In this document: positions 10,483-36,126 of the stretch, one piece after another
How the letters are laid out: every line of letters starts with the position of its first letter
Position numbering within the stretch: position 1 is the first letter of the stretch
IMG/VR virus record: IMGVR_UViG_3300021979_000003
Span: 1 to 64,000 of that record
Reading direction: 5' to 3' (one strand)
Source of the DNA: a virus
Lineage: Duplodnaviria; Caudoviricetes
DNA length: 64,000 nt
Translations under genes and position numbers: made by a program
The notes under the pieces: model-generated
Databases searched by the model: none
What the model was told of the DNA's origin: nothing
The model's input: only the letters and a program-made list of their open reading frames with translations

Positions 10483-11106
10483 ATGCGATACGTATATACT
10501 GCTGACCGTCTCAAGGACATGCTGTCTTATTACAAAGACACTCTTGAAGATATTCGCAAAAGCCTAGCTGTTGATAAAGGCGATATTGATTGTGAAGAAA
10601 TTTTCAATACCGTAAAGGATATGGTCAAAAAGTTAGAAGACCAAGCACGATATGAATATGAATACGCCCTTGAGAATACTTCTGTACCTTTCTGGAAGAA
10701 AGCGGAAGATGTTGTACCAAAACCTGCTATCTGTATTGATAGTATTATTAAGTATGTTGAAGAAAATGGTCTAGAAATTTCTGGCGCATTTCCCTATGCA
10801 GTAAGTCAGTATGAAGAAAGCATTTTTATTGATTCATCTTTTAAAATCACATCATCTGGAAATAAACATACTATCTTTCCAATTGACTCTGAATTTGAAT
10901 CAAGATCGTTTATCGTTTATCATCCAGAATCAAACACGCAACAACTACAAAAAGTTAATCAGTTGATTCATCAAATCCATCGCTATTTCGAGAAAGTTCT
11001 TGATGAAAGTATCACGCCAGACAAGTATGATCTTAATCCTGACGAACAACATGTTTTAGATATTACTGCAAAATATATCAGAGAACATAACGACAAAGAA
11101 CAATGA
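10483..11106 (+). CDS. hypothetical protein
   Basis: GAGGA RBS, 207 aa. Confidence 0.75.
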   Translation: MRYVYTADRLKDMLSYYKDTLEDIRKSLAVDKGDIDCEEIFNTVKDMVKKLEDQARYEYEYALENTSVPFWKKAEDVVPKPAICIDSIIKYVEENGLEISGAFPYAVSQYEESIFIDSSFKITSSGNKHTIFPIDSEFESRSFIVYHPESNTQQLQKVNQLIHQIHRYFEKVLDESITPDKYDLNPDEQHVLDITAKYIREHNDKEQ

Positions 11107-11498
11107 GATTTTATTCAATCCGGTCTTCAAAGATATATGAGTTTTTGATGGAGTGTGAAGATTTGGGTATTCCTTGGAATTTCATGGATACCCTTTCTGA
11201 ATGTACAAATTCTGATGCAGTTATTGAAAAACTGAACGATGGTTATGGCGATCAGTTCTTCAGTGAATTGAAAAAAATTGCAGGAAATATAAGTTATCAC
11301 TACACTGATATTCATGCATACAAAGCAACGTTCTTTTCTGAGACTATTATAAGAAGAGTGGTTGTATTCGATATCGATACAAAAGATATTAACTTACTTA
11401 AGCTGTCCAAGCCCAAGACATATAGTAAGCTGTGTGATATAAAATTTTTCGAATATAGAGTTGAAGAAGATGACGACGAAGAGATTCACGCTGATTAA
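11103..11498 (+). CDS. KLxYP-motif paralogue family member
   Basis: RRVVVFDIDTKDINLLKLSKPKTY. Confidence 0.7.
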   Translation: MRFYSIRSSKIYEFLMECEDLGIPWNFMDTLSECTNSDAVIEKLNDGYGDQFFSELKKIAGNISYHYTDIHAYKATFFSETIIRRVVVFDIDTKDINLLKLSKPKTYSKLCDIKFFEYRVEEDDDEEIHAD

Positions 11499-11835
11499 GA
11501 AGCTAGACTATCATACCATCATGAAGTTCTTAGATGCTGTAGATGCACCAGAGATAGTATCAAGAATGATTGAACTTAATGGTATTGATGTTCTGGATAT
11601 ATGGTTTGAGCGAACAGACTACCATCAACAGATTGTTGATTGTATCGCCAAAACTATGCGAATTGATGAGTATGACAGAATTGAATTTTTACCTTGTGGT
11701 ACAACATCGTTTGCTGATGAGAAAGGTATTATGTTAGTCATTCTTGTTTCAAGTGAACATTACAATCCAAATTACCTGAAGATTAAAAATAGAAACCTCT
11801 ATAATTTTATAGAGGCTTTTGGAAGATGGCGATAA
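11461..11835 (+). CDS. KLxYP-motif paralogue family member (divergent; start uncertain)
   Basis: IMLVILVSSEHYNPNYLKIKNRNLYNFI. Confidence 0.6.
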   Translation: MKKMTTKRFTLIKKLDYHTIMKFLDAVDAPEIVSRMIELNGIDVLDIWFERTDYHQQIVDCIAKTMRIDEYDRIEFLPCGTTSFADEKGIMLVILVSSEHYNPNYLKIKNRNLYNFIEAFGRWR

Positions 11836-12690
11836 TTATTTGTTTTGAGCGTACCAGTCTCTGAATTCACGAGAACTTACGTTCTTAACAATGTCTCTCT
11901 TAGTTACAAACTTTTTGGCTTCACCTTTATCACCTTCAATATAATTGTTAATGGCTTTAGCATCATATTGTATTTCCAAGGTGTTTTTTATGTAACCATA
12001 CATCTTATGTGCAGGTGTTGGTTTATCGCCGGGAACACGTGCTTGGTTTTTAACCATACCAATCATGTCATTTAAAACTTCTTTATAGATATCTGAACCT
12101 TTTAATTCTTCAACTTGAGATTTAGAAAGTTTAAACTGCTTTTCCATTTGTGGTCGATATTTACTTTCCTTTTCCTTACGTTCTTGTTCTTTCTTTTTGA
12201 TAATCGCACTGTTAACTTCTTTCTTAATGTAAGGCAGTTCTTCGAACGATCCCATAGCAGATTTATATAACGCTTCTGCTATTTCTTCTGCACTGTACTT
12301 AGGATGATATAGATCAACCCATTTGTTTATAATCGCATAAACAGTACCTGCCTGATCCAACTCTTCATGTGTCACACCACGAAGCTCTAAATCTTGCTTA
12401 GGTTCAGGCTTAGGTTCTTCTTTAGGTGGCTCTGTGACACTCTGTGCGGACTTTTGTGTCTTACCCTTCTGGGACTTCAGGTAATTGAAGAATTCACCGG
12501 GAGACGCTTTCTTAACTGCCTCCTGCTCTTCACCTTCTAATTCATTCGCCAAAGCTTTTCTTACACTGTAAAACTTATGTGATGCATTGTTGAACTCACC
12601 AGTGGTTTTACGAAACTTATCTAAAAGCTTTTGTAAAAGTTGTTCGTCGGTTTCAGTAATAATGTTTTCAACCAAGTCTAAAATCTTCAT
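11836..12690 (-). CDS. probable virion-packaged protein, N-terminal tag family
   Basis: MKILDLVENIITE; EPPKEEPKPEPK linker. Confidence 0.75.
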   Translation of the reverse strand: MKILDLVENIITETDEQLLQKLLDKFRKTTGEFNNASHKFYSVRKALANELEGEEQEAVKKASPGEFFNYLKSQKGKTQKSAQSVTEPPKEEPKPEPKQDLELRGVTHEELDQAGTVYAIINKWVDLYHPKYSAEEIAEALYKSAMGSFEELPYIKKEVNSAIIKKKEQERKEKESKYRPQMEKQFKLSKSQVEELKGSDIYKEVLNDMIGMVKNQARVPGDKPTPAHKMYGYIKNTLEIQYDAKAINNYIEGDKGEAKKFVTKRDIVKNVSSREFRDWYAQNK

Positions 12691-12698
12691 AACAATCC

Positions 12699-12956
12699 TT
12701 AAAATTCTTTTTTATATGGGCGGTAAGTTGCTCGAATCATATTGACTGATTCACTGCGTTCCATTTCAAGCGGCTTTCCAGTATTCATATCATAATACGA
12801 AAAATAAACCCTACTATGCTCAACACGGTTTATTTTTATTTTCACTTCACTATCGTCTTTATAAACCCAAGTTTCACCTTCCTGTGGTTTACGTCCAGCA
12901 AGACCTACTGTTAATGATGATAGTTCCGCTTCTGACATTAAGTCGTATATATTCAT
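12699..12956 (-). CDS. small late protein, N-terminal tag family
   Basis: MNIYDLMSE (ATG 12956, GGAG RBS); ATAAATA on minus strand at 12978-12984. Confidence 0.7.
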   Translation of the reverse strand: MNIYDLMSEAELSSLTVGLAGRKPQEGETWVYKDDSEVKIKINRVEHSRVYFSYYDMNTGKPLEMERSESVNMIRATYRPYKKEF

Positions 12957-12970
12957 AATTCTCTCCATTA

Positions 12971-12984
12971 ATAAATATATTTAT
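12971..12984. promoter_or_regulatory. bidirectional T4-like late promoter
   Basis: Perfect palindrome ATAAATATATTTAT between divergent genes; identical 14-mer at 54683-54696. Confidence 0.7.
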
Positions 12985-34701: not shown

Positions 34702-34703
34702 AA

Positions 34704-34913
34704 TTACTTTTCTTCAAGGTCTGGAATAGTTTCAGTAAGTACAGTAGGTACAACTTTCCAAACCTCTTCTTTCTCATCGTAATATTCAAGGTCTTGGGTT
34801 TGCTTCATGAGATTGTGTTTTGCTTGATTAATACCACAACCATAAATTTCTTGATAATCTTTAATGGTTTGTACGGTGACCTTATTACGTTTCACATGCC
34901 ATCGCAATTGCAT
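34704..34913 (-). CDS. small hypothetical protein
   Basis: Operon context. Confidence 0.65.
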   Translation of the reverse strand: MQLRWHVKRNKVTVQTIKDYQEIYGCGINQAKHNLMKQTQDLEYYDEKEEVWKVVPTVLTETIPDLEEK

Positions 34914-34915
34914 AT

Positions 34916-35173
34916 TTACTTATCCTTGGTGTCGATTCTCTTAATACTATCATAACGATCTTCTTTAAATACTGCACCATCGTTACATTTAACACCAACA
35001 AGCAAGTCTTCGATGTGGCTATTCTTGCTCATTTCTTTATAGTAAAAAAGCTTAATGCCATCATTTTTACTACAGGTGTCTTTGAAATGTTCATATTCTG
35101 AGTATTCAATCTCACCACTCTTAGAACATCCTACCATAGCTAGTGCCAAACACAATACAATAATTTTTTTCAT
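34916..35173 (-). CDS. lipoprotein
   Basis: MKKIIVLCLALAMVGC lipobox signal; AGGTG RBS. Confidence 0.75.
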   Translation of the reverse strand: MKKIIVLCLALAMVGCSKSGEIEYSEYEHFKDTCSKNDGIKLFYYKEMSKNSHIEDLLVGVKCNDGAVFKEDRYDSIKRIDTKDK

Positions 35174-35183
35174 ACAATCACCT

Positions 35184-35633
35184 TTAGTTTCCAACTCTTA
35201 ACATTTTATTATTAAGATTCACAATTTCCTGATACATTTCAGAATTAGTCAGTTTAAAATGGTTATGAGCCTTTTGCGTCTCAAACACAATATCAATAAG
35301 CATGTATCGGTGTCCAGAAGTACCGACAAAAAAAGAACTATATTGCTTTATGTCGTACACCAGTCTAACGTCTTGACCTTTAACAAAAAAGAAGTTTTCA
35401 ATGAGAAAGTCATACACACCATTGGTGACAATATCAAGATGAAACCTCGTGTATTCTTTGTCTCCACTATCAAATTCACTCATATTAAAATCAATATGTT
35501 TGTCATGAAGAACATGGCTTATTGGAATCATATCATCTGTATCTAGATCATAATGAGTGACAATGTACTTGTAAATCTCAGAAATACTAAATGCGACATT
35601 TACTGAATATCTTTTATAGTCTTTTTTTTCCAT
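35184..35633 (-). CDS. KLxYP-motif paralogue family member
   Basis: RYMLIDIVFETQKAHNHFKLTNSE; likely start MEKKDY at 35633. Confidence 0.75.
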   Translation of the reverse strand: MEKKDYKRYSVNVAFSISEIYKYIVTHYDLDTDDMIPISHVLHDKHIDFNMSEFDSGDKEYTRFHLDIVTNGVYDFLIENFFFVKGQDVRLVYDIKQYSSFFVGTSGHRYMLIDIVFETQKAHNHFKLTNSEMYQEIVNLNNKMLRVGN

Positions 35634-36126
35634 AATATTCCTTGTCTTTTCCCTCACACATCTTACGGTATGCTTCCATGTCTTTTTCAAAATCTATAAG
35701 ATGATGATACATTTTTTGATTAGTGATTTTGAACTTATTGAAAGACTCTTTGGTTAAAAACGATAATGCACATACACAATATAAATGAGTGAGTCGTAAA
35801 AATTCACGATCCGCACTACAATAAAATTCCAATACTATATCATTTGAGGTATCAGGATCATATTCTATTTCTAAAGAATCGTAGACAATCTTTCTAAATA
35901 CATTTCTTGCTATATTAATGATTTCTGGGTCATAATTCTCAGTTACGTATTTACTATTTCGATCACCAGAACTCAAAACAACATCGTGTGTATTAGTATC
36001 TTCAAAGACATTATAGATTCTTTCAAAGTCTCTGTATGAATAACTATAATTATCAATAATGAATTGAAAAACAGTCTGTAATGATATACTAAGTCTGGGA
36101 TGAAATACTCTGTGTGCTTCTACCAT
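35614..36126 (-). CDS. KLxYP-motif paralogue family member
   Basis: VCALSFLTKESFNKFKITNQKMY. Confidence 0.75.
   Translation of the reverse strand: MVEAHRVFHPRLSISLQTVFQFIIDNYSYSYRDFERIYNVFEDTNTHDVVLSSGDRNSKYVTENYDPEIINIARNVFRKIVYDSLEIEYDPDTSNDIVLEFYCSADREFLRLTHLYCVCALSFLTKESFNKFKITNQKMYHHLIDFEKDMEAYRKMCEGKDKEYYGKKRL

Follow-up and report, generated by a model that had tools for sequence, protein, structure and literature searches.

A lineage-restricted family of small, tandemly arrayed proteins in SCTP-2-like megaphages with a predicted single-domain fold and a possible role in host takeover

Introduction

In giant phages a large part of the genome consists of small genes of unassigned function. 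The locus analysed here raises the question of what a phage does with fourteen related copies of one such gene, set out in four tandem arrays. It lies in a 239-kb fragment, roughly 54% complete, of a marine megaphage of about 450 kb, a relative of Salicola phage SCTP-2 with a T4-type capsid gene. The window is the stretch of 64,000 nucleotides at positions 1 to 64,000 of that record. A preliminary description, made from the letters alone, had reported a conserved C-terminal motif in proteins of no named family and had proposed that they act as adaptors. We examined family membership, motif conservation, predicted fold, evolutionary history and gene arrangement, and weighed the adaptor proposal against four other readings.

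Results

Membership and range of the family

All fourteen ORFs of the preliminary description are present where it placed them (Table 1). They form a real multi-copy family, in which twelve core members are strongly linked (all-versus-all BLASTP, best E 1e-15), 11103-11498 is clearly linked and 11461-11835 is linked only via an orthologue. Apart from its recovery by the HMM of the twelve core members, 11103-11498 was matched by the A2 HMM at E 1.8e-13. The 11461-11835 protein was not recovered directly: the HMM gave E 1.7 and hhalign a probability of 7-11%, although the alignment was in the right register. A relative encodes an orthologue of it, L012:1225-1596 (39% identical, E 2e-27), whose entire length aligns with the family HMM at E 0.002 and which carries F-L-P...strand...N-x-L-K-I-K..L-Y in register; by transitivity this makes 11461-11835 a divergent member. 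The profile scores of these two array A members (E 1.4e-6 and 1.7) agree with the earlier remark that they are more divergent than the rest. Beyond the window the contig carries two extra copies, one N-terminally truncated at 238266-238607(-) (E 2.9e-11) and one borderline at 235338-235763(-) (E 0.004).

Some gene starts need comment. The start of 11103-11498 overlaps the stop of a 207-aa ORF at 10483-11106 by 4 nt, and the real start of 11461-11835 is probably an ATG at about 11473. For array D member 2, the orthologues P0014 and L009:5265-5714 begin at the Met equivalent to the ATG at 35633, so this codon (149 aa) is probably the start and not the TTG at 35690 that had been assigned before.

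Table 1. Family members in the window and the genes next to arrays C and D
Feature	Length (aa)	Coordinates	Strand	Evidence
Array A member, divergent	131	11103..11498	+	Core-12 HMM E 1.4e-6
Array A, very divergent probable member	124	11461..11835	+	Via orthologue L012:1225-1596
Array B member 1	128	15861..16247	+	HMM E 3.9e-38; orthologues P0006, P0016
Array B member 2	139	16244..16663	+	HMM E 4.1e-40; first structure model
Array B member 3	131	16650..17045	+	HMM E 1e-32; BLASTP to 17042 1e-15
Array B member 4	135	17042..17449	+	HMM E 6.9e-37; orthologues P0013, P0019
Array B member 5	125	17459..17836	+	HMM E 1.3e-33; orthologue P0015
Array B member 6	136	17820..18230	+	HMM E 4.6e-36; orthologues P0047, P0044
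Array C member 1	139	31816..32235	-	HMM E 2.5e-41; 25 nt downstream of SAM lyase gene
Array C member 2	158	31350..31826	-	HMM E 2.6e-37; omega 0.20 vs L001
Array C member 3	147	30907..31350	-	HMM E 3.1e-38; 72% identical to L009 orthologue
Array C member 4	158	30430..30906	-	HMM E 3.7e-39; second structure model
Array D member 1	170	35614..36126	-	HMM E 8.6e-36; motif without proline (KITNQ)
Array D member 2	149	35184..35633	-	HMM E 1.4e-40
SAM lyase gene heading array C		32261..32815	-	Pfam PF23780 E 4.1e-12
NUDIX and PTH2 genes upstream of array D		36457..37243	-	PF00293 E 1.3e-9, PF01981 E 1.4e-17

An exhaustive search with a family profile returned 47 matches in total among 1.84 billion representative proteins, nearly all of 71-170 aa and mostly covering most of the profile length. 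Searches of Pfam, NCBIfam and PDB sequences gave no family-wide profile match, only isolated chance-level matches in single members. One PHROG, phrog_16508 (annotated unknown function), covers a single SCTP-2 member, gp340. The earlier view that the proteins belong to no named family is borne out by the curated-family profiles (Pfam, NCBIfam, PHROGs with function, PDB), which yielded no shared match. As judged from these searches, the family appears confined to SCTP-2-like megaphages with a T4-type capsid gene and a genome of roughly 450 kb.

SCTP-2 itself encodes homologous proteins of comparable size (134-166 aa), gp340-345 and gp348, in a tandem array of its own, close to a PTH2 gene. Genes 340-345 follow one another without interruption, ~6.5 kb from the PTH2 homologue, gene 326; array D is ~0.75 kb from PTH2 in the window. 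The A2 HMM matched gp340 at 1.8e-6, gp341 at 1.8e-5, and gp343 and gp348 at 7e-5, while the family HMM gave E 2e-6 to 3e-2 for the SCTP-2 copies within the locus and E 8.4e-4 against the whole 440-kb record. These copies share the N-x-x-K-L core with the marine family, as a C-terminal N-(R/K)-L-K-(L/I), and the Lys of K-L does not vary in either phage group. They differ in being very divergent, at about 11-16% identity to the marine copies, in mostly lacking the KLKxP proline and in number, with six or seven copies in one array compared with four arrays in the marine phage.

A conserved C-terminal signature

The C-terminal motif noted at the outset is real, its columns being conserved across 49 homologues in the order F-P, R, a hydrophobic strand ending in F, and then N-x-x-K-L-K-x-P-x-x-Y (F92 92%, P93 61%, R99 69%, F107 86%, N114 82%, K117 94%, L118 76%, K119 71%, P121 88%, Y124 53%). 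Of the 14 best-conserved columns, nine hold hydrophobic residues or proline, and in strand 3 the conserved hydrophobic positions alternate. Conservation of acidic residues does not exceed 43% in any column of the 49 sequences, and given this the signature does not appear enzyme-like. The N-terminal part has a mean charge of -4.4 (negative in 90% of the 49 sequences) and the C-terminal element one of +2.7 (positive in 88%). Overall the proteins are neutral to acidic, with a median pI of 6.4, and a small conserved basic cluster, R99, N114, K117 and K119, sits on an otherwise acidic body. By helical-wheel reasoning, K117 may be partly buried and hence structural.

The N-terminal two-thirds had been called barely alignable. 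This part is indeed less conserved, with 14% identity between paralogues versus 28% for the C-terminal part, but it can be aligned: most profile matches extend over the greater part of the profile, and the structure models share the N-terminal strand and helices. In orthologue pairs the identity is 45% for the N-terminal part versus 53% for the C-terminal part. Orthologues thus keep the body about as well as the C-terminal part, which fits a retained specificity for each paralogue, and the body is paralogue-specific, not hypervariable.

Predicted fold

Modelling of the members had been proposed as a check for a shared fold. Two were modelled with AlphaFold2, 16244..16663 (pLDDT 83.7, pTM 0.75) and 30430..30906 (pLDDT 88.1, pTM 0.83), and both have the same fold, the second with one extra helix. 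The order of elements in both is strand-helix-helix-(helix)-helix-strand-strand-helix-helix. The motif occupies strand 3, helix 4, a proline kink and helix 5, with KLKxP at the junction of helices 4 and 5, and the only long partner available to the C-terminal strand is the N-terminal strand. Both models predict a single compact alpha+beta domain with an N-terminal strand and three or four helices. Because the motif elements belong to one domain with that strand, the signature would be mostly fold core.

These models bear directly on the adaptor array of the preliminary description, in which the C-terminal element docks all paralogues on one partner (a protease, RNA polymerase or a phage hub protein) while the bodies recruit different host targets. 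The architecture it assumed, a constant docking module plus a diversified specificity domain, is unsupported because in two confident models the motif supplies strand 3 and helices 4 and 5 of a single domain and so is not a separable element. The hydrophobic and proline content of the best-conserved columns is likewise as for a fold core, and the proline is not conserved in most SCTP-2 copies. In poxviruses the corresponding proteins have two modules, ankyrin repeats and a separable F-box-like domain that binds Skp1. The present family resembles the poxvirus ankyrin/PRANC arrays in being multi-copy and in having a C-terminal element that all paralogues share while the rest of the protein is specific to each, but it differs in forming one compact domain in both models, and Pfam gave no F-box, PRANC or Ank signal in any of 52 members. 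The adaptor reading does account for one element common to all paralogues next to bodies that are paralogue-specific yet kept between orthologues, for the conserved basic cluster, and for the consistent pattern of acidic body and basic C-terminal element. On balance we regard it as unlikely.

Neither model has a structural neighbour above noise level. The best VIA-align Z scores were 4.5 (SEA domain) and about 4.0 (ABM domains) for the first model and 3.7 for the second, Atlas TM was at most 0.47 and Foldseek E was >= 0.02; the Z and TM values are below chance expectation. The only recurring weak neighbours, all at noise level, are ferredoxin-like domains (ABM or dimeric alpha-beta barrel, RRM, ACT and reverse-transcriptase palm). 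Like these, the family has strands packed against helices, but its models show three main strands plus an insertion of three or four helices, and it lacks the RNP motifs of RRMs and the catalytic Asp motif of polymerases. A reverse-transcriptase or polymerase palm was considered separately and rejected, since catalytic aspartates are lacking (acidic columns at most 43% in 49 sequences) and the match is poor (TM at most 0.47, Z at most 3.7).

The recurrence of these neighbours raises the possibility that the proteins bind nucleic acids or nucleotides through a ferredoxin-like (RRM-like) fold. Such proteins might act on the unusual tRNA-like RNAs and on the RNA-repair and translation-rescue genes around arrays C and D, or might sequester a nucleotide signal. 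The conserved Lys, Arg and Asn would suit this role, and the genomic setting offers a tRNA-like element directly upstream of 35614-36126, with tRNA-Trp, PTH2 and NUDIX genes nearby. However, the structural matches are all noise, RNA binders seldom have such a median pI, no RNA genes adjoin array B, and adjacency to RNA genes is weak evidence in a densely packed phage genome. We consider this explanation improbable, to about the same degree as the adaptor array.

Age, selection and divergence

The duplications are old, because for each paralogue a separate orthologue exists in other phages. In the tree, the 15 copies from the source genome need 15 label changes, and every one of the 12 core copies has a partner from a different genome. 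The relative L009 keeps the order of arrays C and D, and array B is also found in L012 with one member fewer (5 versus 6).

Omega was 0.20 in both informative pairs with L001, among them array C member 1 (85% identical, dS 0.48), and 0.07-0.25 in the four L009 pairs with unsaturated dS. For array D member 1 and its L009 orthologue (53% identical) omega was 0.19. These values point to purifying selection on the paralogues. Gene-wide omega gave no positive selection in the L001 and L009 pairs, and an arms race is for that reason not demonstrated. The family proteins do diverge faster than most of their neighbours, with identities of 49-89% where most neighbours have 85-98%, and of 27-48% compared with 33-92% for neighbours in L012. 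Other small ORFs of the region diverge equally fast, a 156-aa ORF for instance (45.5% identity), and the faster divergence could be relaxed constraint on small accessory proteins.

Gene arrangement and promoter boxes

The tight packing described earlier was confirmed, with genes within arrays overlapping by 1-20 nt or separated by gaps of 0-9 nt. This spacing would suit a model in which the paralogues assemble into homo- or hetero-oligomers, the C-terminal element serving as shared interface and translational coupling giving stoichiometric co-production. The conserved order of arrays C and D in L009 is in keeping with such assembly, as is a three-stranded sheet with one variable exposed face; in ferredoxin-like proteins the exposed face of three-stranded sheets is often covered by dimerisation. 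The difference of five versus six array B members between relatives argues against a fixed hetero-complex, and we think oligomerisation of this kind quite unlikely, somewhat more so than the two preceding readings.

Arrays C and D lie in a block with the SAM lyase, PTH2 and NUDIX genes. The SAM lyase gene is directly upstream of array C, an order repeated in L001, L002 and L009. Seven neighbouring genes have a late-type NATAAATA box 10-31 nt before the start codon (six of them at 21-31 nt), and the SAM lyase gene is preceded at 21 nt by a late-type CATAAATA box. Since that gene heads array C, array C may also be transcribed late, and the early-type label given to the operons in the preliminary description is putative. 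Late expression would be expected if the products were virion-packaged internal or ejected proteins, and the boxes of several neighbours, including the one before SAM lyase, lean that way. No NATAAATA box was found directly before any family member, though, and array B is on the strand opposite to the flanking late-box genes. Packaging in the virion is accordingly the least credible of the alternatives, and we rate it very unlikely.

Discussion

Collectively, the results describe what appears to be an old, lineage-restricted family of single-domain proteins, to which we would assign a binding role in host takeover or counter-defence. The two parts taken together make a tentative reading, plausible but somewhat short of probable. 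The members, small proteins (about 115-170 aa) with one predicted alpha+beta domain, would be non-enzymatic binders co-expressed from tightly packed arrays, and each would use its own helical surface to engage a different target.

A bolder form of this proposal can be drawn. The paralogues may combine a shared site with a variable surface, and in this form the constant basic site R99/N114/K117/K119, at the kink between helices 4 and 5, would serve all members for binding the same anionic partner or ligand, while at least 14 long-retained, paralogue-specific acidic surfaces, on a new fold, would capture different host or defence factors. We consider that unlikely. Equally doubtful is its corollary, that the family packs into single domains the kind of adaptor or decoy battery envisaged in the preliminary description and is so an undescribed megaphage system of host manipulation.

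Large paralogous expansions of small domains with no assigned role are known from another giant phage, Bacillus phage G, which has a roughly 35-copy zinc-ribbon expansion (Iyer et al. 2021, PMC7824862). The present family has a different fold and no metal-binding motif, and its duplications are old and orthologous across phages, unlike the recent ones of the phage G expansion.

The family takes up ~6 kb of the window, and every copy has been kept in diverged phages, a cost that implies a real role. A confidently predicted fold with no detectable relative makes it a good target for structural and functional work, and the cultured relative SCTP-2, which grows on Salicola sp. PV4, makes an experimental test feasible. 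If the copies act in counter-defence or takeover and their targets differ, the repertoire of phage-host conflict would gain a new protein class; if they do not, the family would be an ordinary lineage-specific expansion in a jumbo phage.

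Family membership and gene arrangement

All 14 open reading frames that the preliminary description had assigned to the family were found. An all-versus-all BLASTP comparison linked the 12 members of arrays B, C, and D (best E 1e-15), and an HMM of these 12 members also matched the first gene of array A and two further copies on the same contig outside the window, one of them N-terminally truncated and the other borderline. The remaining array A gene, 11461-11835, gave no direct match to the family HMM (E 1.7; hhalign 7-11%). In L012, a locus from a phage related more distantly, its orthologue (L012:1225-1596; 39% identity, E 2e-27) matched the HMM over its full length (E 0.002) with the motif elements in register, and through the sequence of this orthologue the gene was accepted as a probable, very divergent family member. 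The array D member at 35184 most likely starts with the ATG at 35633. Copy numbers counted on this contig are lower bounds because only an estimated 54% of the genome is contained in the record and the contigs of relatives are longer, up to 401-462 kb. Within the arrays, adjacent genes either share 1-20 nt or leave gaps of 0-9 nt, a packing consistent with co-transcription and with the translational coupling proposed earlier.

Coordinates of the family arrays and of neighbouring features
Feature	Position	Strand	Remark
Array A	11103-11835
Array A, first gene	11103-11498		12-member HMM, E 1.4e-6
Array B	15861-18230	+
Array C	30430-32235	-
Array D	35184-36126	-
Additional copy (contig)	238266-238607	-	12-member HMM, E 2.9e-11
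Borderline copy (contig)	235338-235763	-	12-member HMM, E 0.004
SAM lyase gene	32261-32815		PF23780, E 4.1e-12
Late-type CATAAATA box	32836-32843	-	21 nt before ATG of SAM lyase gene
Sigma-70-like box	33112-33085		TTGACA-16-TATTCT
tRNA-like element	36130-36240	-	in 110-nt gap directly upstream of member 35614-36126
tRNA-Trp	29879-29955		3' part similar to that of tRNA-like element (repeat D4)
Second paralogue pair, copy 1	13581-14612	-	phrog_15932, E 1e-31
Second paralogue pair, copy 2	18214-19161	-	phrog_15932, E 6e-29
Rhomboid-domain protein	47342-48094	-	PF01694, E 1.3e-7
354-aa protein, C-terminal NUDIX domain	50761-51825	-
Non-family small ORFs	27415-27885	-	45-55% identity vs L009
Non-family small ORFs	39631-40601	-	45-55% identity vs L009
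Region matching phage SCTP-2	21640-24644	+	641-aa and 354-aa proteins

A conserved motif within one predicted domain

Alignment of 49 homologues bore out the conserved C-terminal motif, with conserved columns F92, P93, R99, I105, F107, N114, a hydrophobic residue at 116, K117 (94% of sequences), L118, K119, P121 (88%), and Y124. AlphaFold2 with the family alignment produced a model of the 139-residue member at 16244 with pLDDT 83.7 and pTM 0.75. This model consists of a strand (13-23), three helices (24-34, 37-45, 60-71), a short strand (80-83), a third strand (98-107), and two final helices (110-119, 121-135). The model of the 158-residue member at 30430 (pLDDT 88.1, pTM 0.83) adds one helix to an otherwise identical order of elements. 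The C-terminal strand has no candidate long partner other than the long N-terminal strand, so both ends belong to one sheet and one predicted domain. The preliminary description had proposed a two-module adaptor, with a docking tag joined to a specificity domain; a single predicted domain holding both ends gives this arrangement no structural support. A weaker version of the idea, with one shared site and a variable surface, may still apply.

On the model, the motif runs from an F-P loop through the arginine and strand 3, in which conserved hydrophobic positions alternate, to helix 4 (N114, K117-L118-K119), a proline kink, and helix 5 (Y124, L127). Of the 14 best-conserved columns, nine hold hydrophobic residues or proline and look like the core of the fold. 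A functional site could lie in the polar cluster of R99, N114, K117, K119, and partly H120. Acidic residues reach at most 43% conservation in any column, which makes a polymerase- or nuclease-type enzyme unlikely. Across the family, the proteins have acidic N-terminal two-thirds (mean charge -4.4; negative in 90% of sequences) and a basic C-terminal element (mean +2.7; positive in 88%).

The fold, although confidently predicted, has no detectable relative. Searches of the models with Foldseek, VIA-align, and the ESM Atlas returned no convincing structural neighbour: the best Foldseek E values were 0.33 and 0.28 against the PDB for the 16244 and 30430 models, respectively, 0.019 and 0.16 against AFDB clusters, and 0.07 against BFVD for the 16244 model. 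VIA-align over 48,161 chains reached Z scores of 4.5 and 3.7, and the ESM Atlas, searched by shape and language-model features, gave TM <= 0.47 and score <= 0.77. The only recurring theme was the ferredoxin-like class (ABM, RRM, ACT, reverse-transcriptase palm), at noise level.

Distribution and source genome

The family is genuine and undescribed. Pfam, PHROGs, and NCBIfam, queried with single members and with all 52 sequences, contained no shared family, and a sequence profile search of the PDB found nothing below E 0.058, in keeping with the preliminary description, which had recognised no named family. Against 1.84 billion representative proteins, an exhaustive profile search returned only 47 hits at E <= 1e-3 (23 at <= 1e-10), nearly all 71-170 aa long and most covering the greater part of the profile. 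Two hits were set aside: P0008 (5820 aa), reported with no matched stretch, and P0041 (616 aa), a false positive caused by a low-complexity repeat. One member searched by tblastn against 50,697 phage records, array B searched by blastn against phage records, and a search for related loci in viral contigs all gave no match. In papers on SCTP-2, jumbo phages, and marine megaphages, the family is not described.

The contig, of which the window makes up the first 64 kb, is a linear IMG/VR virus record of 239,090 bp with a T4-type major capsid protein gene (PF07068, E 1.5e-79). Its sole DNA match among the 50,697 phage records was to the 440-kb Salicola phage SCTP-2, at 68.7% identity over a single region (see table). 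The two proteins of this region are the best-conserved genes common to the window and SCTP-2; the 641-aa protein shares 66% protein identity with SCTP-2 and is also present in Caulobacter and Brevundimonas jumbo phages (~35% identity), in some records of which it is labelled a "tail protein". Near-identical family members are carried by metagenomic contigs of 351-462 kb from marine samples, such as TARA. From the SCTP-2 match of the contig and the size and marine origin of these relatives, the record is part of the genome of a ~450-kb marine megaphage resembling SCTP-2. SCTP-2 has a tandem array of its own, comprising six genes (340-345) and gene 348, whose profile matches are weak but consistent. 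The encoded proteins have the same N-(R/K)-L-K-(L/I) core as the marine family, and the lysine of this core is the one residue invariant across both phage groups. All the SCTP-2 array genes are annotated 'hypothetical protein', and one belongs to phrog_16508, a group of unknown function.

Divergence of the paralogues

The family is under purifying selection, yet its proteins diverge faster than most of their neighbours. In L009, a 458-kb relative, gene order around arrays C and D is kept: PTH2 and NUDIX come first, followed by array D, the SAM lyase gene, and array C. Compared with L009, family members show 49-89% identity versus 85-98% for most neighbours, with dN of 0.07-0.41 versus 0.02-0.08 for neighbouring enzymes and omega of 0.07-0.25. 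Positive selection was not apparent from gene-wide dN/dS; dS is near saturation in the L009 comparison, so region-wise dN/dS tests against it are unreliable. Since non-family small ORFs diverge equally fast from L009, rapid change in this region is not confined to the family.

A maximum-likelihood tree was built from 51 sequences. In it, the 15 copies of this genome need 15 label changes, and each of the 12 core copies pairs with a protein of another genome and none with a paralogue, so the duplications are old. Array B forms one clade and arrays C and D another; in L012, array B has five members, not six. Orthologue pairs retain 45% identity in the N-terminal part and 53% in the C-terminal part, whereas paralogue pairs retain 14% and 28%. 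The body thus differs between paralogues, as had been described, but is not hypervariable: its conservation in orthologues, almost equal to that of the C-terminal part, shows that it is paralogue-specific and maintained. Gene conversion as the source of the C-terminal conservation was rejected because the sole DNA repeat in the arrays is a 36-nt motif-coding stretch of 72-78% identity with synonymous differences.

Against the very close relative L001, dS leaps from 0 to 0.48 between adjacent members (omega 0.20), a jump that indicates mosaic recombination. Over 30430-32815, two family members are 100% identical in DNA to L001, the following two reach dS of 0.21 and 0.48, and the adjoining SAM lyase gene has a dS of 0.10, a pattern indicative of breakpoints of recent recombination within the array.

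Genes and promoter boxes around the arrays

Arrays C and D lie within an accessory block that holds a SAM lyase gene, of a family known for anti-restriction enzymes. Array C is directly downstream of this gene, and array D is preceded by PTH2, NUDIX, a 68-aa ORF, and a tRNA-like element. This element combines a GGTTCGACTCC T-arm with an acceptor 3' strand ending in an encoded CCA; it received no ARAGORN call, and its 3' part resembles the tRNA-Trp gene.

Boxes of the form NATAAATA precede the start codons of seven neighbouring genes, including SAM lyase, by 10-31 nt (six of seven at 21-31 nt); none stands directly before a family member. As such, TATAAATA is not over-represented (9 found, 8.95 expected), and its one informative feature is the regular distance that it keeps from start codons. 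The SAM lyase gene has a late-type box and, further upstream, a sigma-70-like box, and so its expression may be biphasic; transcription of array C may likewise start from either type of promoter. Sigma-70-like boxes also lie upstream of arrays B, C, and D. The promoter scan found 49 sites versus 48.4 expected from shuffles in the first region, hence no enrichment, and 47 versus 36.2 (sd 5.5) in the second, a modest enrichment only, so these calls are no evidence of timing.

The window further encodes a second paralogue pair in phrog_15932 (unknown function), of which the 18214-19161 copy is missing from the syntenic locus L012. The start of this copy is preceded, at a distance of 22 nt, by a perfect TATAAATA box. 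A rhomboid-domain protein and a NUDIX-domain protein were also found (see table).

Interpretation

The family comprises real, old, lineage-restricted, single-domain proteins. We propose that they would act as a battery of non-enzymatic binding proteins in host takeover or counter-defence, each paralogue being specialised. Less probable alternatives are that the proteins bind nucleic acid or a nucleotide, that the members oligomerise with one another, or that they are virion cargo. By type, the family is a small orphan domain that has expanded in one lineage of giant phages; nothing found so far points to a new mechanism, and the cultured SCTP-2 system makes the family worth experimental work.
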